A stretch of DNA of 64,000 bases from Bacteroidales bacterium (GCA_003550725.1 PUKZ01000144.1:2502-66501); one strand, 5' to 3'; counted from the first letter of the stretch, positions 4,861-60,631 are shown. Notes: generated by a model from the sequence alone, not told the origin. Program-made: numbers and translations.

Positions 4861-4905
4861 AATTTATATATTAATTTCAAGTTTAATTTTATAAAAAAGA
4901 TGTTT

Positions 4906-8156: not shown

Positions 8157-8167
8157 ACTTTTTACTT

Positions 8168-9412: not shown

Positions 9413-9445
9413 ATTGTTTTGTTATTTAAAATATAAAAAGCATTT

Positions 9446-9859: not shown

Positions 9860-10387
9860 TGCAGTTTTTTGATAAATCTTAAAATGTCATCATTATTAAA
9901 AATATATGATATTTAATTATATATATTTTTAAGTTTTTCATGATAGGGTAATATTCATTTTATAACTAATTAAGGTTTATATCGAAATCGTTAATGATTA
10001 TTTCCTATATTTATATATTCTCCTAAAATTCTGTAAATTACAAATGTTTTAGTCGGTCAAAAAAAATAATTTGTCGCAAAGATAATCAATATTAACTAAG
10101 CAAATAACCTATTTTTTTATTAATTAAATGTTAAAAATCTTTTTTGATTAACTTAGGTAAAAAATCCCATTTCAGGCGAGTTATTAGCTTATAATATTAC
10201 AGGATTTTCTTTTGACGGGTTACTTTTCAAACTTTAGATTTATTTTGCAAATTTTTCAATGAAATAAACTTCTTTTTTTTCATAATCATAAAGATTGCAA
10301 TTTTTTATATATATCTTAGTCCTGTGCTCTACCTTGAAAAATTTAAAATAACATCAACTTAAGCTCACAAACTATAAACTACTCATT

Positions 10388-20481: not shown

Positions 20482-21783
20482 TTATATAAAATTACACTCA
20501 AACTGCATGTCTTCTTTTTTATAATCAACCAGGTAAACTTTTTTTATAACATTTTCAATCGCAGGTTCATAAGGTGTTTTTACCCTGACATAATTTGGAG
20601 TAAAACCCGATATAAATCCGTTTTTTGTTTTTTGTTCAAATAATACATCTGTTTTTTCCCCTTTGTTAATATCATAAAAAGCTATAAGCTTATCTTTTGA
20701 CAATTTCTTAAGCTCAATGCTTCGAAGTTTTTTTTGCTCCAAACAAACCTTATTGATAAATTTTGACGCCGGGGTATTTTCCCTCTCACTGTAGGTAAAA
20801 ACATGTAAATATGATACGGGAAGATTTTCTATAAACCACTTGGTAGCATAAAAATCTTCACGTGTTTCTGCAGGGAAACCGGCTATCACATCAACTGCAA
20901 CACACGCCAGGGGCATCATTTTTTTTATTTTTTCGACTTTTGAAGCAAAAAGTTTAGTATCGTAATTTCTTTTCATCTCTTTAAGAACTTTATCTGACCC
21001 CGATTGCAAGGGAATATGAAAATGAGGCATAATCTTTTTCGAATCGGCTACCAATTCAATTATTTCATTTTCAAGCAAATCAGGTTCAATTGAAGACAAC
21101 CTGATTCGTTCGATATTATCAATTTTATCAATTTCCTTCAATAATTCAAAAAAATTTTCATTATGGCTTTTTCCGAAATCACCGATATTCACCCCGGTCA
21201 ATACAAGCTCTTTAACCTTTTTTTGGGTGATTTTTTTTATTTTCAAAAGAGTACCTTCTATATTATCACTGCGACTTCTGCCTCTTGCCATAGGTACAAT
21301 GCAATAAGTACATTTGTAATCGCATCCATCCTGTATTTTAAAAAAAGTGCGTGTGCGATCACCACTTGAGCAGGAAGATATAAATTGATTAAGCTTTGAA
21401 ATTTTGCCGGATTTGGGTATAATGCCATCACGCCTGTATTTATCAATATAATCAAACAACTCAAATTTCTCCTTATTGCCTAAAACAATATCAACTTTAT
21501 CCATTTTGGATAATTGTTCATGTTTTAGCTGTGAAAAACAGCCGATTACAGCAATTTTTCCCTTAGGATTTTGCCGCTTAGCACGGTTAATTAATTCCCG
21601 GCATTTCTTTTCAGCATTATTAGTCACTGAACAAGAGTTGATTACGTAAAAATCAGCTTGGTCTGTAAAGTCTACATGTGTAAATTTATCGTCGTTGGCA
21701 AAATCGCGCTTTATGGTAGAAGTTTCAGAAAAATTTAACTTGCAACCTAATGTATGAAATGCAATTTTTAATCTTTTTGTCAT
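20482..21783 (-). CDS. mtaB: tRNA methylthiotransferase MtaB (radical SAM)
   Basis: N-terminal TLGCKLNFSET, radical-SAM CDYKCTYC and a C-terminal TRAM-like region. The ~430 aa size fits MtaB rather than MiaB/RimO. Confidence 0.85.
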   Translation of the reverse strand: MTKRLKIAFHTLGCKLNFSETSTIKRDFANDDKFTHVDFTDQADFYVINSCSVTNNAEKKCRELINRAKRQNPKGKIAVIGCFSQLKHEQLSKMDKVDIVLGNKEKFELFDYIDKYRRDGIIPKSGKISKLNQFISSCSSGDRTRTFFKIQDGCDYKCTYCIVPMARGRSRSDNIEGTLLKIKKITQKKVKELVLTGVNIGDFGKSHNENFFELLKEIDKIDNIERIRLSSIEPDLLENEIIELVADSKKIMPHFHIPLQSGSDKVLKEMKRNYDTKLFASKVEKIKKMMPLACVAVDVIAGFPAETREDFYATKWFIENLPVSYLHVFTYSERENTPASKFINKVCLEQKKLRSIELKKLSKDKLIAFYDINKGEKTDVLFEQKTKNGFISGFTPNYVRVKTPYEPAIENVIKKVYLVDYKKEDMQFECNFI

Positions 21784-32957: not shown

Positions 32958-34496
32958 ATGGAATATATCACTGAGCATTTTGCTATTATACACATTCTTA
33001 ACCAATATTGGCTGACCTTATTATTGGTTATTTCTATGGTACTTGTATCCCGCACAGTTGTAGCCGGTTCTCGTTATTCTCCCATACTTATTATTGTTGT
33101 ATTTGGTTTGATAATGGGGTTTGTGTTGGTTAACACCGGCTTAGCTACTCCGGGCTTGCCTGAATTTCAAATCGTAGGATTAACCAGCAGGGTTACCATT
33201 ACAGCACTTATGGCATCTTTTTTTGTTGGCGGCCAGGAAATACGCAAATTATTAACAAACAAAAAGATTGATCCTGAAGACATTGTTGTACCTTCATCCA
33301 AGGAAATATTTCTGGGTACTAAAGCTACCCAGTTTATGTTTTTGGTAAGAGCTTTTTTTATTTTAACAGGCATAGAATCTCTTAAACGTGTTATAATTGG
33401 ACATTCATCAGGTGATACACTTGATGAGTTTTATCCTTTACTGGGCTATATTGGTTTAGTTGCATCTATCATACTGATTGATCATCGTGCTAAAATTACT
33501 AATAAAGCAGCATATATACGCAAAGGTGTTTTCGAAACTGCTATGATACTTTTTTTACTACTGGTTTCTTATTATATTTCAGAATGGATTAAACCTGTTA
33601 TCGCTCTTCCCGAGATTTTCTTTGCCATGGTATTATCAGTAAGTCTTGGTGCTATTATGGTTAAATGGAAATTTGGGCCTACTATACGGTCATTGCTTTT
33701 TGCAGGCATACCTGTTGTATTGGCTGCTAATTTTATGGTTGGCGGATCACGAATTTTGGATGCATTTCTATTAAGCGGAATGACATCTGTATTGTCATTC
33801 GGCTTTTTCGGCCAGTTACTATGGATGTTTGGAGGATTGGCTGTATTGATTTTGCTTGGTTCGGCTAATAACATACGTAACCTGGCTCCAGGAATGGCAG
33901 GTTCTTTGTCACACTCTGGCCTAACCGGTGCATGTACTGCAGGAGACCTTGGCCCGGAAGCAGCAGTCAGAGCACCAATAATGATCAACGTGCCTTTTAT
34001 AGGCCACATATTTGTTTTTTCTATCCTGGCAGCCAGTGCTACCGTAGGCAAATTACTAATACCTTATGCTCTTGGAGTATTTTTAATAGGTGTGATATTA
34101 ACCTACTTAGCAATAAAAAGCCTGCGAATGGCTAAAGGAAATGATGCAACAGAAATAAGAGGTTTGATGTTATTTTCACTCGGCTGGCAATTGGTTGCTG
34201 TATTCGGAGGGTTATTAATGCTCGATATCTCGGGTATGAACCTTAGTGATGCCGTTATGGCAAATGCATCAGCTATCTCTCACTTCGGCTTGTTTGCTGC
34301 TATTCAGGGTGGTATGTTTGGAGCAGAAGCTGCAGGATTGATAGCTTTCGTTTTTGCAATGCCATTCCTCGTACATCCACTAGTGTTCGGAATATTTGGA
34401 AAGACAGCAGAAAATAAAGGCATAATGCCTTCAAAAATTGTATACCTACTGGCTTCACTAGGAATTATTGGGGTACTATATTCAATGATATTTTAA
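32958..34496 (+). CDS. polytopic membrane protein of unknown family (possible transporter)
   Basis: 512 aa with ~12-14 hydrophobic helices. GC is higher than in its surroundings. No motif I can name. Confidence 0.6.
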   Translation: MEYITEHFAIIHILNQYWLTLLLVISMVLVSRTVVAGSRYSPILIIVVFGLIMGFVLVNTGLATPGLPEFQIVGLTSRVTITALMASFFVGGQEIRKLLTNKKIDPEDIVVPSSKEIFLGTKATQFMFLVRAFFILTGIESLKRVIIGHSSGDTLDEFYPLLGYIGLVASIILIDHRAKITNKAAYIRKGVFETAMILFLLLVSYYISEWIKPVIALPEIFFAMVLSVSLGAIMVKWKFGPTIRSLLFAGIPVVLAANFMVGGSRILDAFLLSGMTSVLSFGFFGQLLWMFGGLAVLILLGSANNIRNLAPGMAGSLSHSGLTGACTAGDLGPEAAVRAPIMINVPFIGHIFVFSILAASATVGKLLIPYALGVFLIGVILTYLAIKSLRMAKGNDATEIRGLMLFSLGWQLVAVFGGLLMLDISGMNLSDAVMANASAISHFGLFAAIQGGMFGAEAAGLIAFVFAMPFLVHPLVFGIFGKTAENKGIMPSKIVYLLASLGIIGVLYSMIF

Positions 34497-35251: not shown

Positions 35252-35455
35252 ACCATAAAAATGATATTGATCAACATTAGTGATTTAATGTTTATCATAC
35301 TAAAGTTCAATCGATATTTTTAAACTAAAAAAGCAGAGTATGTTATTTATCAATTATATGATTTTAATATTGTCCTTACTGGGAAATATGGTGATTTGGT
35401 TTTGACAATATTTTTTTTTATGATATGACAATGTATTTATTTATATGCTTTTTTA

Positions 35456-35463
35456 TATATTTG
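35456..35463 (+). promoter_or_regulatory. candidate Bacteroidota -7 box (TAtaTTTG) for the dsrC-type operon
   Basis: tatatttg matches TAnnTTTG, 18 nt upstream of the ATG at 35481. I saw no good -33 TTTG. Confidence 0.35.
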
Positions 35464-35480
35464 CCGGAAAAAGCTTAAAT

Positions 35481-35717
35481 ATGACTTCTTTTTGTATAAA
35501 CTATAACACCTGTCCTTTGATTAATGATCCGGGCTTTCTTCAGGTAAAGGAAAAAACGGATTATTATGTAGAAACTTTTTGCAAGGGTGGGAAAGAAAAT
35601 TGGAGCATTTGTAAACGATATTTGATGAAACTTAGGTGGAATTTTTGCCCTGACTTTGTTTTACCGGACACACCGGATACAACTGATGAGATCCTTGACA
35701 AGTTTGAAGAAGAATAG
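35481..35717 (+). CDS. small cysteine-rich protein (5 Cys), first gene of the dsrC-type operon
   Basis: The ORF track starts at 35445, but the -7 box lies inside that extension, so Met at 35481 (MTSFCINYNTC...) is preferred. The Cys contexts are FCINYNTC, FCKGG, SICKRY and NFCPD. Confidence 0.45.
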   Translation: MTSFCINYNTCPLINDPGFLQVKEKTDYYVETFCKGGKENWSICKRYLMKLRWNFCPDFVLPDTPDTTDEILDKFEEE

Positions 35718-35750
35718 TAGTAAATTATATAACTAAAAAAACTGATTTAT

Positions 35751-36068
35751 ATGCCAAAAATTGAGATTGAAGATAAAGTATTAGAAGTTGATGGTAACGG
35801 TTTTATGACCAATCCTGAAATTTGGGATGAAGAAATAGCAAATCTGATTGCTAAATATGATGGAATAACTGAGTTGACAGATCAGCATTGGGCTGTTATT
35901 AATGTAATAAGAAAGAATTACGAAGAAAAAGGCATGGCTCCTATGATTAGGCAAATATGCAAAGCAACCGGGCTTAAGCTTCGTCAGATATATGAGTTAT
36001 TTCCTCTGGGGCCGGCTCGTGGTGCATGCCGGGTAGCAGGTTTACCAAAGCCCGATGGGTGTGTATAA
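35751..36068 (+). CDS. dsrC: DsrC/TusE family sulfur-carrier protein with both conserved cysteines
   Basis: 105 aa, ending GACRVAGLPKPDGCV. Cys93 and the penultimate Cys104 are separated by 10 residues, the arrangement of bona fide DsrC. Confidence 0.85.
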   Translation: MPKIEIEDKVLEVDGNGFMTNPEIWDEEIANLIAKYDGITELTDQHWAVINVIRKNYEEKGMAPMIRQICKATGLKLRQIYELFPLGPARGACRVAGLPKPDGCV

Positions 36069-36085
36069 TTATATATTTTGAAAAT

Positions 36086-36709
36086 ATGGAATGGTATTTT
36101 TGGGTTGCAATAACCTCCTTGGGAATTTGTTTTGCCGGTTATATTTATCATTTTCTAAAACTGATAAATCTGGGTAGTCCAAAGGATTATTCAAAAAAAT
36201 CGGGTAGTACAAAATCGGGTATTATATACTCGTTTACCCATGCAATGAACCCTGTCAATAAAGAATCAGCGTTTTTAAACCTGCCGACATATATTTCGGG
36301 CGTCATTTATCATTTGGGCACATTTCTGGCTATAATTTTGTTTTTTGTATTATTTTTTACTACAAATATAAATGAATTGATATCGCTGCTGCTGGCAGCA
36401 TTTTTATTGTTATCAACATTATGTGGGGCTGGTATGTTGATTAAACGTATCACTGATAAGAAGCTAAGGCACCTTTCCAATCCTGATGACTATATTTCCA
36501 ATATATTAGTTACATTATTTCACTTAGGTTCAGGCACAGTTTTGTTTATTCCTGATGTATATCCTGTTTATATGGTAATAGCAAGTTTATTATTACTTTA
36601 TATACCTTTAGGTAAATTGAAGCATGTGATCTATTTTTTTGCTGCCCGGTATCATATAGGTTATTTTTATGGGTGGCGAAGTGTTTGGCCTACGGCAAAA
36701 TCCAAATAA
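36086..36709 (+). CDS. DsrM/NarI-like integral membrane (putative di-heme b, quinol-interacting) subunit
   Basis: The preferred start is ATG 36086 (MEWYFWVAI...), because the 36026 start would overlap dsrC. It has 5-6 TM helices with conserved-looking His residues (YIYHF, VIYHLG, LFHLG, KHVIYF). The stop abuts the next start. Confidence 0.6.
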   Translation: MEWYFWVAITSLGICFAGYIYHFLKLINLGSPKDYSKKSGSTKSGIIYSFTHAMNPVNKESAFLNLPTYISGVIYHLGTFLAIILFFVLFFTTNINELISLLLAAFLLLSTLCGAGMLIKRITDKKLRHLSNPDDYISNILVTLFHLGSGTVLFIPDVYPVYMVIASLLLLYIPLGKLKHVIYFFAARYHIGYFYGWRSVWPTAKSK

Positions 36710-38029
36710 ATGATGGTCAAAATAAATGAAGACATAATAAAGGCAGGTTTAGAGGTCTTAAATTCACACAAAGACAGCAAGTTAATTACCCATCTTAATA
36801 GTTGTGTACACTGTGGTTTATGTGCCAAAACTTGTTTGTATTATCTTACAAGTAATGATAAGCGTTTTATACCTGCGAGGAAAGTTGAATTAGTTTCGGC
36901 CATTTATCGCAGGTATTTTACTTTTATAGGCAAAACAATGCCCGGGTTAACAAATGCACGCAAGTTAGACGATGATATTATTGCTGAGATGATTGATTTG
37001 CTGTATGGTGCATGTGTGATGTGCGGCCGTTGTGTTAAGCATTGTTCTATTGGTGTTGATATTGAATATGTTGTTAGAAAGGGTCGTGAGATGCTTGCAA
37101 AGATGGGTTATGTACCCGAATCATTACAGTCAACTGTAAAGGCTGCACTGGAAACCGGTAACAATATGGCAATTTCTTATGAAGACTTTACAGACACCAT
37201 AGAATGGATGGAAGAGGAGTTGCAAGATGATTGCGATGACCCCGATGCCCGTATTCCCCTGAATGAACATGGGAAAAATGTATTATACACATTAAACCCC
37301 AGGGAACCTAAGTTTTTTCCTCTTTCAATTTCAGCCATGGCAAAAATATTTTATGCTGCAAAAGAAAGCTGGACTTTATCAACCTATATGTACGATGTTA
37401 CAAATTACGCATATTTTTCAAGTCATCCCGCAGAAGCAAAAACAATAGCACAACGGATATATGACGAAACGGATAAATTGAAAGCAAAAAGACTGGTTCT
37501 GGCTGAATGTGGTCACGGAGTGAGGGCTAACAGATGGGAAGCTCCAAACTATATAGAAAAAGAATTTCCGTTTGATGTTATTACATCGGTTGAAATAATA
37601 GCAGAGTATATCAAAGAAGGGCGAATAAAACCTAACAAAGAAATTATAACAGAAAAGACAACCCTTCATGACCCATGCAACCTTGTCAGGAACGCAGGAG
37701 TTATAGATGACCAAAGATATATTCTAAAAAATTGCGTAAAGGATTTTGTAGAAATGGTACCATATGGCACCGACAATTTTTGCTGCGGCGGTGGAGGGGG
37801 GCAGCTTACTATGAGTGAATACAATGACAGAAGGCTAAGTATAGCTGAAATAAAGGCTGAGCAAATACGAAAAACGGGAGCTTCTATAGTTGTTTCGCCA
37901 TGTCATAATTGTATTGATCAATTATCTCAGATCAATGTAACCTATAAGCTTAACGTAAAAATAAAAACCTTAGCTGAAATAGTTGCTGATACTTTACTTG
38001 TTGAAAATATGCTTAATAATAATAAATGA
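36710..38029 (+). CDS. DsrK/HdrD-like iron-sulfur protein with CCG domain
   Basis: Two ferredoxin-type motifs (CVHCGLCAKTC, CVMCGRCVKHC) and CCG-domain motifs (HDPCNL, FCCGGGGG, SPCHNC). Confidence 0.8.
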   Translation: MMVKINEDIIKAGLEVLNSHKDSKLITHLNSCVHCGLCAKTCLYYLTSNDKRFIPARKVELVSAIYRRYFTFIGKTMPGLTNARKLDDDIIAEMIDLLYGACVMCGRCVKHCSIGVDIEYVVRKGREMLAKMGYVPESLQSTVKAALETGNNMAISYEDFTDTIEWMEEELQDDCDDPDARIPLNEHGKNVLYTLNPREPKFFPLSISAMAKIFYAAKESWTLSTYMYDVTNYAYFSSHPAEAKTIAQRIYDETDKLKAKRLVLAECGHGVRANRWEAPNYIEKEFPFDVITSVEIIAEYIKEGRIKPNKEIITEKTTLHDPCNLVRNAGVIDDQRYILKNCVKDFVEMVPYGTDNFCCGGGGGQLTMSEYNDRRLSIAEIKAEQIRKTGASIVVSPCHNCIDQLSQINVTYKLNVKIKTLAEIVADTLLVENMLNNNK

Positions 38030-38044
38030 TTAAACTTTCTATAT

Positions 38045-39208
38045 ATGAAAAATTTGATTTACCTCGATAATGCAGCTACAGCATTTCCTAAACCGGAGGA
38101 GGTTTATAATTTTATGAATGAATTTTATTGTAATCATGGTGTAAGCCCCGGTCGTTCAGGCTTTGATGCATCTATTGAAGCAGAGGAACTGGTTTCTGAG
38201 ACCCGAAAATTATTAATGGAGCTATTCAATGGCGATGGTGATCCTGACAGGCTAACTTTCAGTTATAATGGAAGCGATTCGCTGAACATGATCATACAGG
38301 GCCTGGCAGAAAAAGGTGATCATGTTATAACTACCATGCTTGAACATAATTCTGTTTTGCGTCCTTTACATCACCTTCAAATTGATGGGGTAATTGAGCT
38401 AACTCATGTGCCTTTTGACAACCATGGTTATATTGACCCTGATGATATTAAAAAGGCAATACGCCCCAATACCAAAATGGTAGTAGTCAACCAGTGTTCA
38501 AATATCATTGGCACAATACAACCTGTTGGTGAAATAGGTAAAATATGCAAAGATGCAGGAGTCTTATTTGTTGTTGACGGAGCGCAGGGGGCAGGAGCTG
38601 CAAATGTTGATATGCAGGCAATGGGTATTGATGTATTCGTTTTTACCGGTCATAAGTCATTGATGGGGCCTACCGGTATAGGTGGTTCTTATGTAATGAA
38701 AGGCGTTCCTGTAAAATACACCCGTTTTGGAGGTACCGGTGTGCGATCGGCACAACTCACCCACCTTGAAGAGTTTCCCTACAGGCTTGAATGCGGAACA
38801 CTTAACATGCTGGGTGTATCAGGATTGAATGCAGGTGTAAAATGGATTAATAAAACAGGTATCGAAAACATCCATAACAAAGAATTAGCTTTATGGGATA
38901 AATTGAGAACCGGATTACAAAACATAGACAGGGTAATTACTTACTGTGCCGAAAACACAAAAAATCAAAATCCCGTATTAAGTTTTAATATTGATGGCAT
39001 GCCTGCCTCTGATGTAGGAATGATGCTGGATGTTGACTACAATATAGCATGCCGAACCGGCCTGCAATGTGCCCCAAAAGTTCATGAAAGAATCGGAACC
39101 ATTGACATTAAAGGAACCGTAAGATTTGGTATAGGACCCTTTAATACTGAAGAACATATCGACTCAGCTATTAAAGCAGTTGAAGAAATTGCTTCACTTA
39201 AAATATAA
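38045..39208 (+). CDS. cysteine desulfurase (class V aminotransferase, SufS/CsdA-like)
   Basis: PLP-lysine context FTGHKSLMGPTG. The catalytic loop RTGLQCAP resembles the group II R-x-G-H-H-C-A-x-P loop. Confidence 0.8.
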   Translation: MKNLIYLDNAATAFPKPEEVYNFMNEFYCNHGVSPGRSGFDASIEAEELVSETRKLLMELFNGDGDPDRLTFSYNGSDSLNMIIQGLAEKGDHVITTMLEHNSVLRPLHHLQIDGVIELTHVPFDNHGYIDPDDIKKAIRPNTKMVVVNQCSNIIGTIQPVGEIGKICKDAGVLFVVDGAQGAGAANVDMQAMGIDVFVFTGHKSLMGPTGIGGSYVMKGVPVKYTRFGGTGVRSAQLTHLEEFPYRLECGTLNMLGVSGLNAGVKWINKTGIENIHNKELALWDKLRTGLQNIDRVITYCAENTKNQNPVLSFNIDGMPASDVGMMLDVDYNIACRTGLQCAPKVHERIGTIDIKGTVRFGIGPFNTEEHIDSAIKAVEEIASLKI

Positions 39209-43609: not shown

Positions 43610-44296
43610 ATGCAAAAGCAACGTTACATAAAAAACGAAAACATGTTGACCACTGAGGAAAATATCAGTTTAAGGGAAAAAAGTGTAGCAGTGGTTGGTT
43701 GTGGTGGTTTGGGTGGTTTTATAATTGAGGAGCTTGCAAGGCTGGGCATAGGTAATATTACGGCTATTGACGGCGATGTTTTTGAGGAATCAAATCTTAA
43801 CAGGCAATTGTTTTCTGAGACCGGAAACATTGGTTATTCAAAAGCACTTGCTGCAAAAGAGCGCATAGAAAAAGTTAATCCCGACATTAAGCTGTCGGCC
43901 GTTAACGAATATCTTAATGACAAAAATGCCGAGAAACATTTGAAAAACCATAATGTTGTTTGCGATGCTTTAGATAATATACCATCACGAAAATTAATCC
44001 AAAAAACATGTGAAACTCTTAATATTCCGCTTGTTTACGGTGCTATAGCCGGGTGGTACGGTCATGTATCAACTGTTTTTCCGGGAGATAATATTTTAGA
44101 TTATATATATGATACAGATCAGGTAAAAGGCGAAGAACAGGAATTGGGTAATCCTTCATTTACACCTGCTCTTATAGCATCGCTTCAGGTTGCAGAAGTT
44201 GTTAAGTTACTTACAGGTAAAAATGGACTGTTGCATAAAAAACTTTTGTTTGTTAATTGTCTCGAACATAAATATAATATTATTGATATCGGCTAA
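43610..44296 (+). CDS. ThiF/MoeB/HesA-family E1-like adenylyltransferase
   Basis: The motif VAVVGCGGLGGFIIEELARLGIGNITAIDGDVFEESNLNRQ, at 228 aa. There is no rhodanese domain or zinc CxxC pair. Confidence 0.8.
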   Translation: MQKQRYIKNENMLTTEENISLREKSVAVVGCGGLGGFIIEELARLGIGNITAIDGDVFEESNLNRQLFSETGNIGYSKALAAKERIEKVNPDIKLSAVNEYLNDKNAEKHLKNHNVVCDALDNIPSRKLIQKTCETLNIPLVYGAIAGWYGHVSTVFPGDNILDYIYDTDQVKGEEQELGNPSFTPALIASLQVAEVVKLLTGKNGLLHKKLLFVNCLEHKYNIIDIG

Positions 44297-50451: not shown

Positions 50452-52434
50452 TTATAAGCCATTTCCTCCTAGTTTGAATCCAATAACCAAGACATCATCA
50501 ATTTGGTCTTCATCTTTCTTCCAGTCAAAAAAGTTTTGTTTCAACAACTTTTCCTGTATATCCATTGGTTCTTTATAAATATCCAGCAAGAAATTTTTGA
50601 AATTTTTAAGAAGGAATTTTCTGTTATTCTCGCCTCCAAACTGGTCGATATATCCATCAGAGAATATATAAAACCATGTAGGTTTGTTGACAGGTATTGT
50701 TGTTTTTGAGAAATTACGTTCGGTTTCTCTTTGTACACCACCGATCGACATTCTGTCGCCTTTTACTACTTTTGCTTCGCCGTCTTGTATATAAATAATT
50801 GATGTATGTGCCCCCGAAAACTCTAATGTTTTATGCTTTTTATTGATAACACAAAGCGACATATCCATTCCATCGCGGTTATCTCCTTCTTCTTGCTTTA
50901 GTGTTCGGCGTATACCTTTATGAAGGCTGGATAATATCTCATTGGGGGTTGTAATGCCATGATAAGTAATTTCGTCAAGAAGGTTATATCCAATCATAGA
51001 CATAAAAGCACCCGGCACTCCATGGCCGGTACAGTCAACAGCCGATATTATAAATTTGTCGTTTTCTATTGGCAGAAAGTCATTATTATTACCTGATTTC
51101 ATGATGTTCGTTTCATGGCCTTTTGCTTTCTTTTTATTTGTTACCGGCTCCTTTTGTATTTTTTCTTTTGTTTTTTTGGAGCTGTTGTTATCTATTTCCT
51201 TAAACCAGTAAAAATCACCACTTACTGTATGCAAAGGTTTAAAGAATATAAATGATTCCGGCAAATAATCTTTCAGAGTATCACGAGGAGGCAATAAAGC
51301 TTTTTGAATATCTTTGGCATAGTTGATACTATGAGTAATTTTAAGGTTTTGGTCTTCAATTTTATAATATGCTTCCTGTAATTGCTTGCTTTTATTTGCG
51401 ATTTCTTTGTTGGTTGCCTCAAGTTCTCTGTTAGCCCGCTGTTTGGCTCTATAGTTTCTAAATAATATTATCAACAAAAAAGCACCTATTACAAATACAC
51501 CAATACCATATGTAATAATAACTCTTTGAGTTCGTTGTTGCTCTTCCTGCTTTTCAAGTTGAGCTTGCTGAAGTTCCCTGTCAAGCTGAAGCCTTTCCAT
51601 TTCCTGTCTTGCCAAACTGTCGCGCGCATCAGCTATCAACAAAGAATCTTCTTTAGCTTCAACTATACGGCGAATCGAATCTTGTTCAGCCTCATAAACC
51701 AACTGCTGCCGCTCTATCTCCAACTCTCTTTCCCTGCGCTCAAGCCTTTCCTGGCGCAATTCAGCCTGACTCTTCTCTTCCCGGGCATGAAAATCTTCTT
51801 TAATAGATTCTGTTGCAATATAATCCTGCAAAGTGAAAAATTTTTGCTCATAATCAGAACCTTTTGCAACATTACCAATATTATTGTAATTTTTTGAAAG
51901 CTGATTATAAATATTAAGAAGCAATAATTGATAATTGTTTTCATCAGCAATCTTCTCAGCATCCTCCAAATAATCTACTGCTCTTTGATAATCGCCGGTT
52001 AAACCAACAACATATGCCAGGTCAACCAAACCAGTGGAGATCATGCGCCCACTTCCAATTTCCCTTCGCACATTTAAACTCTTTTCAAAATAATTTATAG
52101 CCCGGCGTAAATCTTCATTATCCAAATATATAAGACCAACATTGCTGTAAACATCTTTGATCTTCTCCAAATCACCAAGTTTTTCGTAAAGAGGTATTGT
52201 TTCAAGAAAATAATTTATCGCAAGATTATCCCTCTGATTATCCCAATAAATAAATGCAATTTTACTAAGGTGCGATACTGCATTTCTATACTCATCATTG
52301 TTTCTATAATAAGAAACCATCTCTTCATACTTGTCCACTTTAGTTTGATCAGCATCACTCAGAGGCCGCTGCTGCGAAAAACTATACTCACAAAACAATG
52401 ACAAGACAATCAATAAAATAAGGGTATTTTTCAT
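50452..52434 (-). CDS. transmembrane TPR-repeat sensor fused to a PP2C/SpoIIE phosphatase
   Basis: Signal peptide, TPR repeats (e.g. RRAINYFEKSLNV, QRAVDYLEDAEKI), an E/R/Q coiled coil and a TM helix (VIITYGIGVFVIGAFLLIILF). The C-terminal SpoIIE/PP2C motifs are SGDFYWF, DCTGHGVPGAFMS and SDGYIDQFGG. Confidence 0.85.
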   Translation of the reverse strand: MKNTLILLIVLSLFCEYSFSQQRPLSDADQTKVDKYEEMVSYYRNNDEYRNAVSHLSKIAFIYWDNQRDNLAINYFLETIPLYEKLGDLEKIKDVYSNVGLIYLDNEDLRRAINYFEKSLNVRREIGSGRMISTGLVDLAYVVGLTGDYQRAVDYLEDAEKIADENNYQLLLLNIYNQLSKNYNNIGNVAKGSDYEQKFFTLQDYIATESIKEDFHAREEKSQAELRQERLERRERELEIERQQLVYEAEQDSIRRIVEAKEDSLLIADARDSLARQEMERLQLDRELQQAQLEKQEEQQRTQRVIITYGIGVFVIGAFLLIILFRNYRAKQRANRELEATNKEIANKSKQLQEAYYKIEDQNLKITHSINYAKDIQKALLPPRDTLKDYLPESFIFFKPLHTVSGDFYWFKEIDNNSSKKTKEKIQKEPVTNKKKAKGHETNIMKSGNNNDFLPIENDKFIISAVDCTGHGVPGAFMSMIGYNLLDEITYHGITTPNEILSSLHKGIRRTLKQEEGDNRDGMDMSLCVINKKHKTLEFSGAHTSIIYIQDGEAKVVKGDRMSIGGVQRETERNFSKTTIPVNKPTWFYIFSDGYIDQFGGENNRKFLLKNFKNFLLDIYKEPMDIQEKLLKQNFFDWKKDEDQIDDVLVIGFKLGGNGL

Positions 52435-53802: not shown

Positions 53803-55005
53803 ATGGATAAAATACATTGCTTAATTACTTCACTGATACTACTTACAATATCAGTAAATATAAATTGCCTGGGGCAAACTCAAACGTTCAGGGTTTACTA
53901 TAGCTCTACCGGTGACATAAAAGAAGAATATACAGGTTATATTGAACAGGGAGACACAATAAAAGAAGGCAAATACAAATTTTATCTGCCCGGCGAAATT
54001 ATAAATCAGCAAGGATATTTTGTAAATAATAAACCAGAAGGCTTGTGGAAGCTTTATTATGATGTTGGTAAACTACATCAAAAAATTGAATTCTCAAAAG
54101 GTGTAAGGCACGGAAAAATTAAAGCGTTTTATAAAGACGGGAGTTTGCAACAAAAAGGATATTATAAGAATGGCCGGTTGGACGGAGAATTTATTTCTTA
54201 TTACAACGATGGTACTGTTGAAAGTATTTCAAATTATTCAAATGGAATTCAAGATGGTTTAAAGAAAATATTTTACCCCACCGGAATTATTTACCGTAAA
54301 TTTGAATTAAGATATGGTATTGAACACGGCCTCTGGCAAATGTATCATGAAAACGGAATGATCAACTATAATGGGAAAAAATCAAACGGAGAATTTGCCG
54401 ATACTTTAAAAGTTTATTATGAAAATGGTAATATTCAAAGAATATGCTATTATAAAAACGGGCTTTTAGAAGGTAAATACAAGGCTTTTGATAAAAATGG
54501 CAACCTTAGTATAAAAACATATTATAACAAAGGCAAAATAAATGGAAAGTATAAGGAGTATTATCCTGGTGGAAATATTCTTCAGAAAGGAAAATATTCC
54601 GAAAATAAAAAAGAAGGGATCTGGAGATCATATTATAATGATGGTTCTTTGCATGCTATCGGGAAATTTTGCAATGATGATTTTTCGGGTTTATGGAAAA
54701 TTTATTTCCCCAATGGCAACATAAAGCAGATAGGTGAATACAAAAATGGCAAATCGGAAGGCTTTTGGAGATTTTATGATAAAAATGGCAATATATCAAC
54801 TTATGGAAATTACAGCAGGGATCTAAAACAGGGTTACTGGATTATATATAGACACTGGAACGGTGTTAAAACGGCTGTTATTAAATTATACAACGGTTAT
54901 GAACCGGCAAAAACCAATGTATGTTTTGATAAAGCAAGCAAAAACAAAGACTTATTATATATTAAATCAATGCCTCTAATTGTTACTCATAACAGACAAA
55001 ATTGA
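53803..55005 (+). CDS. MORN-variant/YwqK-like repeat protein
   Basis: About 12 tandem ~23 aa repeats of the type G.Y.NGK.EG.WK.YY.NG, behind a signal/anchor sequence. Confidence 0.8.
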   Translation: MDKIHCLITSLILLTISVNINCLGQTQTFRVYYSSTGDIKEEYTGYIEQGDTIKEGKYKFYLPGEIINQQGYFVNNKPEGLWKLYYDVGKLHQKIEFSKGVRHGKIKAFYKDGSLQQKGYYKNGRLDGEFISYYNDGTVESISNYSNGIQDGLKKIFYPTGIIYRKFELRYGIEHGLWQMYHENGMINYNGKKSNGEFADTLKVYYENGNIQRICYYKNGLLEGKYKAFDKNGNLSIKTYYNKGKINGKYKEYYPGGNILQKGKYSENKKEGIWRSYYNDGSLHAIGKFCNDDFSGLWKIYFPNGNIKQIGEYKNGKSEGFWRFYDKNGNISTYGNYSRDLKQGYWIIYRHWNGVKTAVIKLYNGYEPAKTNVCFDKASKNKDLLYIKSMPLIVTHNRQN

Positions 55006-55411
55006 AATCCAGATTTGCCATATCAGCAAAATCTTCACCTGCCTCAAGCATATCTTCGTCATCTACTAAATAATACCAATCAATTGTTAATTCAGGATCT
55101 TTAGTTTCAATTTGTTTTATTAAGTCCAATATTTCCAGAATCATTTTAGATGAGGCGGTATTAAAATATTCCATGGTAAAAGAAACCTGAGTCCCCGGCT
55201 TCGGATCTTTTGCATACCAGCAAAGCCAGTCTTTTATCTTTCTGTAAAAACCTCTGGCATCTTCAGGTAATGATCTGCCCGAAAATAAAATTTTCCCCTT
55301 TTGCTTGTCTAACAAAATCTCCGGGGTTTCTGACGTCCTCTTTTTGGTCAAAACTTCAGGTAAATCATTACCATATCCATTTCTGCTTATCTTTTTTTCC
55401 TTTGTATCCAT
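54983..55411 (-). CDS. SiaC-like (DUF1987) regulatory phosphoprotein
   Basis: 142 aa with GRSLPEDARGFY, YFNTASSKMILEIL, DWYYLVDDEDMLEAGEDF and NFVCYE. This matches my memory of the DUF1987/SiaC family, including the NT(S)S phosphosite context. Confidence 0.7.
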   Translation of the reverse strand: MDTKEKKISRNGYGNDLPEVLTKKRTSETPEILLDKQKGKILFSGRSLPEDARGFYRKIKDWLCWYAKDPKPGTQVSFTMEYFNTASSKMILEILDLIKQIETKDPELTIDWYYLVDDEDMLEAGEDFADMANLDFNFVCYE

Positions 55412-55513
55412 AAATAAATTAAATGGTTTAACAGTTATATTTTTTGATTACCTCTTTTTATATATGTTTATATTAAATAAAAAACAATAACAACCCGGTC
55501 ATTATTGGTTTAC

Positions 55514-55951
55514 TTAATAACAAACAAAATTAAACTTAACACCTGCCCTTTCCTCGAAATCCTCACCGGCTTCAAGCATGTCTTCATCGTCATCAAGGTA
55601 TCGCCACTCAATTTTTAATACATTTTCGTTTTTTGCTTCAAAAATCTGTTTGAATAACTCAAGTAATTCTAATACCATTTTTGAGGAGGATGAATTTATA
55701 TATTCAAACTGAAAAATAACTTTAGTGTTTTGCTTTATATTATTTTTGGCATAATTGATTACCCAATCCATTATAGGTTTGTAAAAACTTTTTGCATCTT
55801 CGGGCAAAGAACGTCCTGATAATTTTATCAACCCTTTGTTTCTGTCGAGCAAAACTTCCGGAGAATCCATAGTTCCGCTAAGATAAAAGTAATTAAGGCT
55901 TGGAGCTTCACGAAGTTCTTTATATACGTCTTTTCTTGCTGAAGTTTCCAT
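55514..55951 (-). CDS. SiaC-like (DUF1987) regulatory phosphoprotein, paralogue
   Basis: 145 aa with GRSLPEDAKSFY, YINSSSSKMVLELL, EWRYLDDDEDMLEAGEDF and NFVCY. Confidence 0.7.
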   Translation of the reverse strand: METSARKDVYKELREAPSLNYFYLSGTMDSPEVLLDRNKGLIKLSGRSLPEDAKSFYKPIMDWVINYAKNNIKQNTKVIFQFEYINSSSSKMVLELLELFKQIFEAKNENVLKIEWRYLDDDEDMLEAGEDFEERAGVKFNFVCY

Positions 55952-56515: not shown

Positions 56516-59500
56516 ATGTCTACGGAAAATAAAAAGTTTGCTTCAGAAGCATTAGAAGTTAACCTTGCCCAAACACGCAAGGCAGATATTGTTATACCTG
56601 ACGAACAAAAAAAAATTCTCAAATATTCAGAATCATACTGGGGTATAAATAAGCGTACTAAAGATTTTTTGCAGGAGTTAAATCATCCTTACGCTAATTA
56701 CCAATTTTTAGTTGATGAATACCGAAAAATCATATTAGGTGATTTTTGGCTATATGAGCAACATAACGAAGGTAAAGAAGCATTTTTGCTATTGCTCAAT
56801 ATCGCTGATAATCTTTTATCCAATAATTTGAGCAACAATGAATCAGGGCAGTTATTAAGAACATTGATGGAATTTGCAGGGGTATGTTCAAAAAGCAATA
56901 TGGCTTTCAGGGAAACTGTTATTGCAAAAGTTTTTTCAATACTTGAATCAATTTATCAAAATAACAGACACTTATTAATAAAAAATTCCGGTTTAATAAA
57001 AAAGCATTTCAAAGGATTAGCAGTTTCAGAAAATTTCTCGCAGCTCACTTTTGAGTTTACAAAAAAGATAGCTTTGGCCAATTTAGATTACTGGACAAAA
57101 AATGCCAAAGCCGGTGAGTGGTTTGATAAAAACAAGAAGCTTTTTGAGAAAGATTATTCCAAAGAGATAAAACTAATAGAAAGACCTTTTTTTGACCGGA
57201 TCAAAAAAAATATAGAGGCATCTTCCGATTGGAAATCACTGTGCGATAATGTTCCGTTTTTTAATGATATAACAGAGCATTTTCGCAGATTCATTGATAA
57301 ATTTGAAAAAAGCATTGAGAAGTTCTATTATATTATCTTTTTACTTCACTTGCCCGGCATGGAAAGCAGTCGTAATCAACTGCTTTGGGAACTGAACAGG
57401 ATACTTCGCAACATTCATGATGAGCTTAGAGCAGATGAAATAGTTGCTTTCATTGATAACATATTTTCACTATTCAAAGAGCTTAAACATGATCACATGT
57501 CAACTGTTCTTGACTGTATTCTTACCCTTGGCAAGGAGGTTATAAGTATTAAGGAGCGGAAAATTATCAGCTATTTTGAAAACAAGCTTATTGAGCTTGG
57601 TTTTGTCACACCCGGTTTGGTATATATTCAGGAAAACTGGCAGTTAAAAATTGACCCTAATCATTTGAAAAATATCAGGGTATGGCTTGAACTAATAGAA
57701 CATGCGCCATACACTTTCAGAAAGTTACTTTCGGCATTAATTGTAAACCTAAGGTTGGGCGGGATATTTATTTTTGACACCGATCTTTTTCAGCGCGATA
57801 TAACAATGTTGCTTAACAGTGATATTTCACCTTTATATAAACAGATAAAGCAGTTGACACGCATATTCCCGGTATATTTTAATGAGATTGGTGCCGAAGG
57901 TGACCTGCGTGATGTTACTACTGTTATGGACGAGATCTCAGGCAGACAGGATAAGCTCATACATTTCCTTAGAAAACAGGTGCATATTGAAGGTAATAAC
58001 TCACACATCGATCTGACTCGCAAAATTTTTCAATTCTGGTTTGACGGAAACCTGGATAATCTCAAGCCACATATCCCTGTAGATGTTTATGCAGCCATTG
58101 ATAAAGAAAGCCACTGGTTTACAAATGTTCACCAGATTATTAATCAAATGTGCTTGGAAAAAAAATGTAAGCCGGTTGATTTGCTCACTTTAAGTGAGGA
58201 TGAATTTGGTAATTTGCTTGAAGAGATAGAAAACGGCAGCAAAGACGATAAAAAACGGCTTAGACTATTGTTCAGGCTTTATAATCTTCTAAAGGAAAAG
58301 TATTCATTTGAAACTACCGACATTACAACTATTTTAAAGAAATACCCCTTCTTTGAAGAAAAAGAAATATACAAGCTTGATGACCATCTTAACAGTGGCA
58401 ACACAGAAAAAGCTATTGGAGCAATATATAAATTCATGGAAAAGCTTAACCAGGTTATATTCAGCAAAGAATACAGCCAGGGATGGGAAAGCATATATCA
58501 CAAAAGACATATTGCATTTGGTATACCTTCAATGTACGGTCAATACCGGGAGACCAAATTTGAAGCACTGGGAGTGATATTCAGGCTTGAAAAACTTGCT
58601 TCAAAGCTAATGGAGAAAAGAATTTACGGCTTTCAAACTGAATATATAACCGCCAAAGCACTTAAAGAATCATACCAGATACTTAAATTGTTTCAAAAAG
58701 GACTTGAACTAGACGGGGTTACAAGCCAGGTATTGGATTCTAATCTTCAAATGCTAAAATATGGACTTACCAGCCAAAGCTTCTCATTAGACCAGTTTAT
58801 AAATCTATTCCAGTTTATAGCAAAAAATGTGAAAGAAATTACATATACATACTTTTTTAGTTTTTATGATCAGCCTTTAAGAATGATTATTCCACAACTT
58901 TTCGATACTGAAAAAAAACTGAATGAAAAAGAGTTAAATCAGCTAATTGTAAGCAAATCCGAAGTTTTTTACAGGGAAATCCTTTACTCTTCTTTTTTGA
59001 TTCAGTTGCTCGATAATTTTGTAAGCAGAATAATTCATTCGTTACAAAATATGGTTGATAATTTTAGCCAGGAAGTCATTCGAAGAATAATGTCGTATGA
59101 TTCTGACCTGATTATAAGCCCTTTATACAAAGAAACCTTAAAAGTTGATAATCAAATTTTTCTTGGGTCCAAGGCTCTATATCAAAAAAAACTTTATTTG
59201 TCGGGATTTCCTGTGCCTCCTGGTTTTGTTTTGACCACGGAAGTATTTAGAAGCCGCCGGGCCATACTTTCCAACCCCACATTATCAAGAGAGGTTGATG
59301 ACCTGGTAAAAAGTCATATAAAAAAGTTGGAAAAGCTTACAGGCCAGCTATATGGTAGCCCTGAAAACCCGTTACTTTTATCGGTAAGATCGGGTACTGC
59401 TATTTCGATGCCCGGGGCAATGAATACATTTCTAAATGTTGGCATGAATGATAAAATAGTTGAAGCTTTCAGCCGTCAGCCCAACTTCGGATGGACATCA

Positions 59501-60631
59501 TGGGATTGTTACCGGCGTTTTCTACAAAGCTGGGGAATGACCTATGGTATAAACCGCGATATTTTTGACCAGGTTATGATTGATTATAAAAATATTTATA
59601 AAATAGATCAAAAGATACATTTTACTTCCAGGCAAATGCGTGAAATTGCTTTTGCCTATAAAGAAATACTGGAAAAAAATAATGTTAAATTTGAAGAAGA
59701 TCCATGGCAGCAGCTAAAACAGGCAATAATGAGCGTATTTGATTCCTGGTCTTCAAAAAGAGCGATTGTCTACCGGGATCACTTGCAAATTGCCGAAGAA
59801 TGGGGCACTGCTGTGGTAATACAAAAAATGGTGCTTGGTAATATCTATGACTATTCGGGTACAGGAGTAGTTTTTACATACAATCCTCAAATACAAAAAC
59901 CGGGAATATATCTCAACGGCGATTTCACTATGTGTAGCCAGGGAGAAGACATTGTTGCCGGGCTTGTACATGCACTTCCGGTATCGGTTTCACAAAAACA
60001 GCTAACTCAGCGTGAAAATCAGATTTCGCTTGAAGAAAGGCTGCCTGAAATTTACAACCGTTTATACGAAATTGCCTATAGCCTGGTTGAAAAACTTGGC
60101 TATAATCACCAGGAGATTGAATTTACCTATGAGTCGGAAAATCCTGAAGACTTATACATTTTACAAATACGTGATCAGGACACACGCAAAGTTGAAAGAA
60201 TGGAGGTTTTCAGTGAGCCGGTATCAAACATGAAACTTTTGGCAAGAGGAATTGGTGGCGGAGGAGGTGCACTGACAGGCAGGCTGGCAATAGACATGGA
60301 AGACATAAAAATGTTGAGAAAAAAATATCCCGATGAAAAATGTATCCTCGTAAGACCTGATACGGTACCTGATGATATACCAATTATTTTTGAATGCGAC
60401 GGCCTGGTAGCAGCCAGAGGCGGCACCACATCACATGCTGCAGTGACAGCAGCTAGATTAGGAAAAACATGCGTGCTTAATTGTCATCATCTAATAGTGT
60501 ATGAGAAAGAAAAAGAATGTAGTATTAACGGACATATACTAAAACCCGGTGATAAAATATCTATTGACGGGTTCGCAGGAAATATTTTTAGCGGATATTA
60601 TAAAACCGAATTAACTGAAATTGTCAATTAA
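56516..60631 (+). CDS. 1371 aa protein: ~880 aa unknown helical N-terminal region plus PPDK-type ATP-grasp and phosphohistidine swivel domains, with no PEP/pyruvate barrel
   Basis: From ~aa 880 the protein carries LGSKALYQKKLYLSGFPVPPGFVLTTEVF, PLLLSVRSGTAISMPGAMNTFLNVGMND and WDCYRRFLQSWG. These are followed by GTAVVIQKMVLGN, GTGVVFTYNP, CSQGEDIVAG and EIEFTYE...LYILQIRDQ. Next come ILVRPDTVPDD and GGTTSHAAVTAARLGKTCV (His1307, nt 60434-60436). Only ~64 aa follow the His. Confidence 0.8.
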   Translation: MSTENKKFASEALEVNLAQTRKADIVIPDEQKKILKYSESYWGINKRTKDFLQELNHPYANYQFLVDEYRKIILGDFWLYEQHNEGKEAFLLLLNIADNLLSNNLSNNESGQLLRTLMEFAGVCSKSNMAFRETVIAKVFSILESIYQNNRHLLIKNSGLIKKHFKGLAVSENFSQLTFEFTKKIALANLDYWTKNAKAGEWFDKNKKLFEKDYSKEIKLIERPFFDRIKKNIEASSDWKSLCDNVPFFNDITEHFRRFIDKFEKSIEKFYYIIFLLHLPGMESSRNQLLWELNRILRNIHDELRADEIVAFIDNIFSLFKELKHDHMSTVLDCILTLGKEVISIKERKIISYFENKLIELGFVTPGLVYIQENWQLKIDPNHLKNIRVWLELIEHAPYTFRKLLSALIVNLRLGGIFIFDTDLFQRDITMLLNSDISPLYKQIKQLTRIFPVYFNEIGAEGDLRDVTTVMDEISGRQDKLIHFLRKQVHIEGNNSHIDLTRKIFQFWFDGNLDNLKPHIPVDVYAAIDKESHWFTNVHQIINQMCLEKKCKPVDLLTLSEDEFGNLLEEIENGSKDDKKRLRLLFRLYNLLKEKYSFETTDITTILKKYPFFEEKEIYKLDDHLNSGNTEKAIGAIYKFMEKLNQVIFSKEYSQGWESIYHKRHIAFGIPSMYGQYRETKFEALGVIFRLEKLASKLMEKRIYGFQTEYITAKALKESYQILKLFQKGLELDGVTSQVLDSNLQMLKYGLTSQSFSLDQFINLFQFIAKNVKEITYTYFFSFYDQPLRMIIPQLFDTEKKLNEKELNQLIVSKSEVFYREILYSSFLIQLLDNFVSRIIHSLQNMVDNFSQEVIRRIMSYDSDLIISPLYKETLKVDNQIFLGSKALYQKKLYLSGFPVPPGFVLTTEVFRSRRAILSNPTLSREVDDLVKSHIKKLEKLTGQLYGSPENPLLLSVRSGTAISMPGAMNTFLNVGMNDKIVEAFSRQPNFGWTSWDCYRRFLQSWGMTYGINRDIFDQVMIDYKNIYKIDQKIHFTSRQMREIAFAYKEILEKNNVKFEEDPWQQLKQAIMSVFDSWSSKRAIVYRDHLQIAEEWGTAVVIQKMVLGNIYDYSGTGVVFTYNPQIQKPGIYLNGDFTMCSQGEDIVAGLVHALPVSVSQKQLTQRENQISLEERLPEIYNRLYEIAYSLVEKLGYNHQEIEFTYESENPEDLYILQIRDQDTRKVERMEVFSEPVSNMKLLARGIGGGGGALTGRLAIDMEDIKMLRKKYPDEKCILVRPDTVPDDIPIIFECDGLVAARGGTTSHAAVTAARLGKTCVLNCHHLIVYEKEKECSINGHILKPGDKISIDGFAGNIFSGYYKTELTEIVN

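Follow-up and report, generated by a model that had tools for sequence, protein, structure and literature searches.

We analysed a 64,000-nucleotide (nt) stretch of DNA from a Bacteroidales bacterium (GCA_003550725.1, PUKZ01000144.1:2502-66501), hereafter the window, which carries a cluster of genes for a DsrC-type sulfur carrier, an integral membrane protein, a DsrK-like iron-sulfur protein and a cysteine desulfurase. Listing the open reading frames (ORFs) of the window places five of them on the + strand at this locus (35445-35717, 35751-36068, 36026-36709, 36710-38029 and 38045-39208); with the third gene started at a conserved MEWYFW (36086), the intergenic gaps are 33, 17, 0 and 15 nt, the same layout of five same-strand genes that an initial annotation of this DNA had given. 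The assignment to Bacteroidota made at that time is borne out by a type IX secretion system (T9SS) sorting domain, found in the 64-kb window by Pfam scan, and by the closest relatives of the locus, which among the best 80 of 437 DsrK-like matches are Bacteroidales metagenome-assembled genomes (MAGs) from soda-lake sediment. Identical contigs occur in salt- and soda-lake metagenomes, and the public sequencing runs that contain the locus are DNA runs of salt- or soda-lake origin, with no RNA run found. Pfam scans covered essentially all window ORFs of at least 120 amino acids (aa), several of which match no Pfam family. No member of the sulfite reductase (DsrAB, Asr), Apr, Sat, DsrEFH/TusBCD or SelD families was found among these ORFs, in agreement with the earlier statement that neither dsrAB nor tusBCD is present in the window.

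The second gene (35751-36068, + strand) encodes a 105-aa DsrC-type sulfur carrier that matches PF04358 (6e-36) and TIGR03342 (104 bits, cut-off 53.5). It ends in GACRVAGLPKPDGCV, with Cys93 and the penultimate Cys104 separated by ten residues, and is thus the two-Cys DsrC that it had been taken for. In the Protein Data Bank (PDB), its best matches are the DsrC proteins of sulfite reducers (2xsj at 108 bits, followed by 1ji8 and 2v4j; range 83-108 bits), and the TusE-like sulfurtransferase 7syb reaches 39 bits. The TusE equivalog model NF008562 gives 67.6 bits for the window protein, against a cut-off of 191, which places it outside TusE as defined by that model. In an alignment of orthologues, Cys93, Cys104, Cys70 and the tail GAC[RK][VI]AGLPKPDGCV were invariant in 52 of 52 sequences, so that a loss of Cys93, which had been checked for, is seen in none of them. 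Two of these positions distinguish the protein from its canonical counterparts: Cys70, a position occupied by Ser or Thr in the crystallised DsrC proteins of sulfite reducers, and Asp101, which replaces the Thr of the canonical PKPTGCV ending. Both may contribute to specificity for the desulfurase or the reductase. The DsrC motif used by DiSCo, AGLPKPTG(not N)C[A/V], differs from the AGLPKPDGCV found here, and whether the difference stays within the one mismatch that DiSCo allows turns on the counting of the last residue.

The third gene (36086-36709, + strand, in an ORF that opens at 36026) encodes a 207-aa integral membrane protein, for which weak profile matches and the predicted fold indicate a NarI/DsrM/HmcE/TmcC-like structure. 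The protein has no Pfam match, and the NCBIfam models for HmcE (6e-07) and TmcC (1e-06) align over nearly its full length at scores far below their cut-offs. An AlphaFold model (predicted local distance difference test score, pLDDT, of 76.7; 27 homologues) was compared to the PDB using Foldseek. All eight best matches were NarI, with probabilities of 0.99-1.0 and template modelling scores of ~0.5-0.57 but E-values of only 0.07-0.2, and EtfD of M. smegmatis (9ojn) was also recovered as a fold match; the earlier description of this protein as NarI/DsrM-like is supported to that extent. The third transmembrane helix is predicted to be continuous in the model, and an uninterrupted third helix has been described as the DsrM-1/NarI-like state, in which the quinol site is open and the protein is predicted to oxidise quinol (2026 cryo-electron microscopy [cryo-EM] preprint). 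His76 and His180 do not vary in any phylum; His22 and His190 are fully or almost fully conserved among the Bacteroidota sequences, falling to 54% and 66% in the wider set. We presume that this subunit serves as a haem-b, quinol-interacting anchor.

The fourth gene (36710-38029, + strand) encodes a 439-aa iron-sulfur protein that NCBIfam scores and motifs place in the DsrK/TmcB/HmcF/HdrD family and that would act as the catalytic subunit in the cytoplasm. All of the relevant NCBIfam scores lie below their cut-offs (TmcB 298 bits, cut-off 735; HmcF 294, cut-off 750; DsrK 235, cut-off 400), and by sequence the protein is a separate clade of the DsrK/TmcB/HmcF superfamily. Two CX2CX2CX3C motifs (Cys32/35/38/42 and Cys102/105/108/112), an AECGH motif with Cys267 and His269, and a single complete CCG motif (C323, C358, C359-G, C398 and C401; one PF02754 stretch at 1.8e-11) are invariant in 80 of 80 orthologues, which thereby conserve all 14 motif cysteines. 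The only PDB sequence match was EtfD (9ojn, 2e-09), in a PDB set searched without DsrK, HdrD or TmcB chains. Motifs and family bear out the initial naming of this gene as HdrD/DsrK-like; the parallel naming of the pair as DsrMK-like holds less well, since the third and fourth gene products score nearer to TmcBC/HmcEF than to DsrMK proper. The CCG motif, defined as CXnCCGXnCX2C, binds a non-cubane [4Fe-4S] cluster (PMC10861901), and a single CCG motif together with the cysteine of a T/GECGH motif is the signature of DsrK, HmcF and TmcB (PMC10861901; 2026 cryo-EM preprint). The ECGH cysteine, Cys329 in A. fulgidus, has been seen in a persulfurated form, and a role in handing sulfur on from DsrC to the non-cubane cluster has been proposed for it. 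The last CCG ligand in the window protein is Cys401 and not Asp, as placed by motif position only against Asp500 of A. fulgidus DsrK. That aspartate belongs to the DsrK of A. fulgidus DsrMKJOP, and Cys takes its place in the homologues AF0543, AF0544 and AF0547, of which AF0544 and AF0547 occur in dsrMK arrangements and AF0543 in a second dsrMKJOP set (PMC10861901). The carboxylate ligand has been suggested to tune the cluster for an oxygenated (perthiosulfenate) substrate (cryo-EM preprint); we infer that a cysteine at this position would fit a purely sulfur substrate.

The fifth gene (38045-39208, + strand) encodes a 387-aa class-V cysteine desulfurase dependent on pyridoxal 5'-phosphate (PLP). 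Its assignment to TIGR01977 (EF2568-type; 425 bits, cut-off 377), an Aminotran_5 match at 9e-86 and the presence of both FTGHKS and RTGLQCAP motifs bear out the class V call that had been made for it. The models of the named families are not reached (SclA 320 bits against a cut-off of 525, SufS 249/475, CsdA 173/607 and IscS 162/643), and the best PDB matches are SufS-like, led by 5b7s at 197 bits and followed by SufS and CsdA. Across 59 orthologues, His203, Lys204 (the PLP lysine) and the catalytic Cys342 are invariant and His101 is conserved in 97%. Cys342 sits in a short RTGLxCAP loop of the SufS/CsdA type. SufS-like type-II desulfurases are characterised by a short Cys loop and by reliance on a dedicated acceptor protein.

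The first gene of the cluster (35481-35717, + strand; ORF listed from 35445) encodes a 78-aa accessory protein with five conserved cysteines (C5, C11, C34, C44 and C56 in the 78-aa numbering) and a CPDFVLPD motif. The initial annotation had described it correctly as a small five-Cys protein but had started it at 35445. The start is most likely Met13 of that ORF, at 35481, because gene callers elsewhere give 78 aa, because conservation among orthologues begins at about Cys17 of the long ORF, and because a TAnnTTTG-type box lies at 35456-35463. This box, TATATTTG, is read from the sequence as a putative Bacteroidota -7 promoter element on the + strand, ~18 nt before the likely start codon; the Bacteroidota -7 consensus is TAnnTTTG. 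A sigma-70 promoter scan at the locus found nothing above the shuffle background, and a terminator scan was likewise uninformative. An exhaustive search with a hidden Markov model of the five-Cys family returned 93 matches at E<=0.001, nearly all of 53-136 aa; four long matches (496-2841 aa) among them look spurious. The AlphaFold model of the protein is all-helical and confident (pLDDT 93.8), and yet nothing in the PDB resembles its fold to a meaningful degree; the sequence, too, has no Pfam or NCBIfam family. Among the fetched loci, the gene is restricted to the Bacteroidales versions of the module (18-19 loci per set), and it is a Bacteroidales-only accessory outside the core unit.

The remaining four genes recur as a unit far beyond the window. 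Two anchors were used to collect related loci. With the first, relatives of the DsrK-like protein were identified in one genome per GTDB species, yielding 437 confirmed matches, of which the best 80 (53-82% identity) were fetched. About 65 of these 80 loci carry the genes for DsrC, the membrane protein and the DsrK-like protein in the same order, and in most the desulfurase gene lies directly downstream. The second anchor was a degenerate nucleotide pattern encoding the end of DsrC, GLPKPDGCV and a stop, for which less than one chance match was estimated in the collection; it matched at least 119 further stretches, nearly all with the same partners. After removal of nine duplicated contigs, 174 distinct module-type dsrC genes remained among the matches listed, and 104 of these could be assessed (at least 3.6 kb of contig downstream). 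Among these 104, the membrane gene is found at 95 loci, the DsrK-like gene at 96 and the desulfurase gene at 94, and all three lie within 6 kb of dsrC at 88, in many phyla. The linkage of the four-gene core is not due to chance. With regard to the five-gene order whose recurrence had been proposed as a check, it is thus the four-gene core that recurs across phyla, and the five-Cys gene does not accompany it outside Bacteroidales. With duplicates still counted, 59 loci have the desulfurase gene downstream on the same strand, 30 have it downstream in convergent orientation, and in three it is upstream. The identities of the four proteins to their window counterparts co-vary (r = 0.85-0.93), which argues that the four genes are passed on together, whether by descent or by transfer.

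According to record labels, the Bacteroidales hosts include Prolixibacteraceae, Lentimicrobiaceae, Marinilabiliales, Muribaculaceae, Rikenellaceae, Butyricimonas and Draconibacterium. The other hosts are Ignavibacteria, Aminicenantes, Holophagae and other Acidobacteriota, Zixibacteria, Eisenbacteria, Latescibacteria, KSB1, Krumholzibacteriia, Chitinivibrionales, Phycisphaerae, Planctomycetales, "Eubacteriales"/Clostridia and a few Deltaproteobacteria. Among the carriers are complete genomes (CP006772.1 of Bacteroidales strain CF, CP070687.1, OY782180.1, OY760195.1, OY970261.1, OY969762.1 and OY970208.1), and some, such as strain CF, Butyricimonas and Draconibacterium, are in culture. All-versus-all clustering of neighbouring ORFs across ~190 loci, extending ~8 kb, detected no recurrent family beyond the five module genes. 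In particular, no dsrAB-like or tusBCD-like family occurs within that distance, and the possibility raised earlier that such genes adjoin the locus and give it an ordinary role is met by their absence both from the window and from beside these related loci. In several Aminicenantes, Acidobacteriota and "Eubacteriales" loci, the genes for DsrC and the desulfurase occur alone among unrelated neighbours. Because this pair survives by itself in several lineages, it is the tightest association within the unit, which points to a direct partnership between desulfurase and DsrC.

Several loci depart from the common arrangement. At L160 (1089-7996), the desulfurase and DsrC genes are followed on the opposite strand by genes for HdrB-like (two CCG domains), HdrC-like, AsrB-like (NAD_binding_1 and DHODB Fe-S domains), AsrA-like (Fer4_22) and FrhB-like proteins, a set that is a candidate for a soluble, NAD(P)H-linked DsrC reductase in place of the membrane module. 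At L055 (9283-10452) and L061 (~9288-10400), a gene for a CysK-type PLP enzyme (PF00291) with a Cys-rich C-terminal tail, CYTCCDPIEC...YCPRR, stands between the DsrK-like and desulfurase genes, suggesting that some modules are tied to cysteine synthesis or turnover. Three loci (L174, L117 and L124) encode a DsrC that ends in PKPDGCV with neither a DsrK-like gene nor a desulfurase gene within 6 kb, so that this tail is nearly, not absolutely, specific to the module; the first of them is a Deltaproteobacteria MAG whose DsrC is only 42% identical. Finally, eleven gut or rumen Bacteroidales MAGs (L029, L030, L033, L035, L039, L041, L043-L045, L048 and L053) carry an orphan DsrK-like gene, at ~8001-9290 in most of them, whose product is 60-64% identical to the window protein and retains its Cys motifs. 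This gene mostly lies between PriA-like and MiaB-like radical-SAM genes, and no gene for DsrC, the membrane partner or the desulfurase was found within 8 kb of it at any of the eleven loci.

The best reading of the locus, which fits all of the comparative evidence, is a self-contained DsrC cycle, independent of DsrAB, in which DsrC would be loaded by the desulfurase and unloaded at the expense of quinol. We infer its mechanism and advance it tentatively, rating its likelihood a little short of even. The desulfurase would convert L-cysteine to L-alanine and keep the sulfur as a persulfide on Cys342. DsrC is the probable acceptor, because short-loop enzymes of the SufS/CsdA type need a dedicated one; its flexible C-terminal arm would take the sulfane sulfur on Cys104, with Cys93 serving in the formation of a protected trisulfide or in resolution of the persulfide. 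The loaded arm would then enter the DsrK-like subunit, where Cys267 would pass the sulfur to the non-cubane cluster. Two menaquinol electrons arriving by way of the haem-b anchor would free H2S, as has been proposed for two-subunit DsrMK with an open NarI-like quinol site. The net reaction would be L-cysteine + menaquinol -> L-alanine + H2S + menaquinone, and the cycle would act as an electron sink for cysteine sulfur, possibly energy-conserving, in fermentative anaerobes. By an estimate from Thauer-type tables, the reaction of cysteine with H2 to give alanine and H2S yields about -59 kJ/mol, with an E0' near -0.1 V, close to that of menaquinone. Reduction of the persulfide by menaquinol is feasible but marginal, and is clearly exergonic if counted from NADH.

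Each part of the proposed cycle has relatives in known systems. Like the DsrC-DsrMK(JOP) system, the module has a two-Cys DsrC whose C-terminal arm is the same, a catalytic subunit in which two [4Fe-4S] motifs accompany an ECGH cysteine and one CCG motif, and a partner of the NarI fold; its two-subunit form resembles an 'ancient' DsrMK, which is predicted to oxidise quinol at DsrM. Unlike that system, the module has no linked DsrAB, and its sulfur would come from cysteine rather than sulfite; it also differs from A. fulgidus DsrMKJOP in the final CCG ligand noted above. TmcBC and HmcEF of Desulfovibrio provide the best NCBIfam matches for both subunits and share the T/GECGH and single-CCG signature, whereas the module lacks the cytochrome c subunits (TmcA, HmcA) and other Tmc/Hmc genes, and its hosts are not sulfate reducers. 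SufS-SufE/SufU and CsdA-CsdE are comparable in that a SufS/CsdA-like enzyme with a short Cys loop is encoded tightly beside a small Cys-bearing protein, but here the putative acceptor is DsrC, which does not have the fold of SufE, SufU or CsdE, the enzyme comes from TIGR01977, a clade yet to be characterised, and the pair is linked to a membrane reductase. The IscS-TusA-TusBCD-TusE-MnmA relay also moves desulfurase sulfur to a carrier of the DsrC/TusE family; in contrast, the module has no linked TusA, TusBCD or MnmA and its carrier has two cysteines. HdrED of methanogens and EtfD of mycobacteria have the same two-part design, a NarI-like anchor and an HdrD-like catalytic domain, and couple a CCG-cluster site in the cytoplasm to the pool of quinone or phenazine in the membrane. 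EtfD, however, is one fused polypeptide acting between ETF and menaquinone, whereas protein-bound sulfur on DsrC is the likely substrate here; HdrD has two CCG motifs and reduces CoM-S-S-CoB (PMC10861901), and the module protein has one.

Several observations weigh against the desulfurase-loaded, quinol-linked cycle. The residue after the catalytic His of the desulfurase is Asn in the alignment; this position is His in SufS and Asp in selenocysteine lyase, so that Asn is that of neither and leaves the choice between cysteine and selenocysteine less clear. Just two histidines of the membrane subunit are invariant across phyla, and two haems are therefore not assured. Quinol-driven reduction of a persulfide would be thermodynamically marginal in sulfidic habitats, and by analogy electrons might flow either way, since sequence does not fix their direction, DsrMK(JOP) is oxidative in sulfur oxidisers and EtfD reduces quinone. 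In addition, about one third of loci have the desulfurase gene on the other strand, which means that strict co-transcription is not universal, and at seven loci the reductase genes have no desulfurase gene nearby. The orphan DsrK-like genes of the eleven gut and rumen Bacteroidales suggest that the reductase may have other substrates.

Other explanations of the locus were therefore weighed. In one, DsrC, loaded by the desulfurase, acts in the manner of TusE and gives its persulfide to tRNA or cofactor thiolation, and the DsrK-like complex serves only to keep DsrC usable, in that it re-reduces a Cys93-Cys104 disulfide or trisulfide or supplies electrons for reductive sulfur insertion. DsrC does lie within the TusE/DsrC family, the DsrC-desulfurase pair stands alone in some lineages, and type-II desulfurases normally serve biosynthetic acceptors (SufS-SufE, CsdA-CsdE); the carrier nevertheless has both cysteines, is of the DsrC type and falls far under the TusE equivalog cut-off, and a membrane-bound, quinol-linked reductase would be a heavy cost for mere repair. 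Neighbour clustering found no MnmA, ThiI, TtuA or MoaD/ThiS-type partner recurring beside the module, and the ThiF-family gene 4.4 kb from the window's desulfurase is not a conserved neighbour. The MiaB-like methylthiotransferase near the orphan DsrK-like gene of gut Bacteroidales could be read in favour of a biosynthetic role, but this neighbour is limited to one clade, and the methylthiotransferase of the window is only 27-28% identical to it. We regard such a relay as unlikely, though it deserves to be kept in mind. The cycle might also run in the oxidative direction, with the DsrK-like complex oxidising persulfurated or dithiol DsrC, electrons passing to menaquinone and a DsrC trisulfide going to an unnamed acceptor; in sulfur oxidisers, DsrMKJOP is believed to act in this way on persulfurated DsrC. 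EtfD, which combines NarI-like and HdrD-like parts and is the sole PDB relative of the catalytic subunit, works toward quinone reduction, taking electrons from ETF to menaquinone. We consider this direction improbable. Neighbour clustering linked none of the enzymes able to consume a DsrC trisulfide (rDsrAB, sHdr, DsrEFH, DsrL) to the module; most carriers are anaerobes with a fermentative metabolism, living in sulfidic sediments, digesters and guts; and the apparently NAD(P)H-linked module paired with DsrC at L160 suggests reduction.

Ordinary sulfite reduction, in which DsrC and the reductase would serve a DsrAB or AsrABC encoded elsewhere and the desulfurase would be a chance neighbour, appears very improbable. 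In its favour, the window DsrC is very similar to the DsrC of sulfite reducers, a genome may have its dsr genes in scattered places, and dsrAB is known in some Bacteroidota (Kapabacteria), Zixibacteria and Acidobacteriota. Against this stand the linkage to the desulfurase, which is far too conserved for chance, the absence of a dsrAB-like family within ~8 kb at ~190 related loci, and the failure of the reductase pair to reach the DsrK, HmcE and TmcC equivalog cut-offs. In a survey of 950 dsrAB genomes, dsrAB within Bacteroidota occurs in Chlorobia and Kapabacteria only, and its main text does not include Bacteroidales, Ignavibacteria or Aminicenantes; the carriers of the module extend to Muribaculaceae, Rikenellaceae and Butyricimonas of the gut. 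DsrC in genomes that lack DsrAB is moreover a known 'paralogue' class, and such proteins are treated by DiSCo as paralogue false positives. Selenium handling, with the class-V enzyme acting as a selenocysteine lyase, DsrC carrying a selenotrisulfide and the reductase delivering selenide for selenophosphate synthesis, seems to us the remotest of these explanations. In favour of selenium, TIGR01977 is named after EF2568, whose gene adjoins selD in Enterococcus, and the SclA selenocysteine-lyase model gives 320 bits; that score is nevertheless well under the cut-off of 525, and no SelD-, SelA- or YedE/YedF-like gene recurs beside the module or is present among the scanned ORFs of the window.

Among the other genes of the window, three candidates for membership in the module were rejected. 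A ThiF-family E1-like protein (228 aa, 43610-44296), encoded 4.4 kb downstream of the desulfurase and considered as a possible analogue of CsdL/TcdA, is not a conserved neighbour; the presence of a ThiF-family gene near a desulfurase recalls CsdA-CsdE-CsdL. The radical-SAM methylthiotransferase at 20482-21783 has, at the identity given above, no link to the MiaB-like gene beside the orphan DsrK-like genes. A 512-aa polytopic membrane protein (32958-34496) encoded upstream of the module and an sll1863-family gene are conserved in the two closest relatives only; the 512-aa protein, which has no Pfam or NCBIfam match and is found at 88-90% identity upstream of the module in L004 and L005 only, may be a transporter. 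Elsewhere, a TPR-SpoIIE phosphatase (50452-52434) and two tandem genes for SiaC-family phosphoproteins (54983-55951) suggest SiaABCD-like partner-switching signalling. Two tandem hemerythrin-domain genes (4456-5313; 134 and 135 aa) possibly serve O2 or NO sensing or protection in an anaerobe. A 1371-aa protein encoded at 56516-60631 has PPDK_N and PEP-utilizer mobile domains at its C-terminal end only, with no Pfam match in its first ~900 residues.

All parts of the module come from known superfamilies, and what is new to us is the wiring of the desulfurase-loaded cycle, in which the desulfurase would replace DsrAB as the loader of DsrC. We found no description in the literature of DsrC together with a desulfurase and a DsrMK-like unit, although the DsrC review of Venceslau (2014) may mention one. 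The presence of DsrC and a DsrK-type reductase is taken to indicate a dissimilatory sulfite reducer or a sulfur oxidiser, and yet a two-Cys DsrC and a matching reductase are kept in hundreds of species outside the known sulfite-reducing groups, where they are regularly tied to a cysteine desulfurase. For DsrMK, it has been argued that oxidation of quinol at the outer face together with proton uptake from the inside adds to the proton-motive force (cryo-EM preprint), and the same would hold for the proposed cycle. A further and more doubtful step, which we consider rather unlikely, is that the module carries out the terminal reduction of cysteine sulfur ('cysteine respiration'), in which menaquinol would be oxidised outside, cytoplasmic protons consumed and energy conserved. 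It would then be a widespread and so far unrecognised source of sulfide in sediments, digesters and guts, and perhaps represent the ancestral task of DsrC and DsrMK before DsrAB. If the cycle itself is correct, it would define a new desulfurase-acceptor pair and a DsrAB-independent function for DsrC, and would inform the evolutionary assembly of the Dsr pathway. It would also call for caution in inferring sulfate or sulfite respiration from metagenomic matches to dsrC or dsrMK. For the gut Muribaculaceae, Rikenellaceae and Butyricimonas, it would provide a quinone-linked route from cysteine to H2S, with a bearing on gut sulfide.

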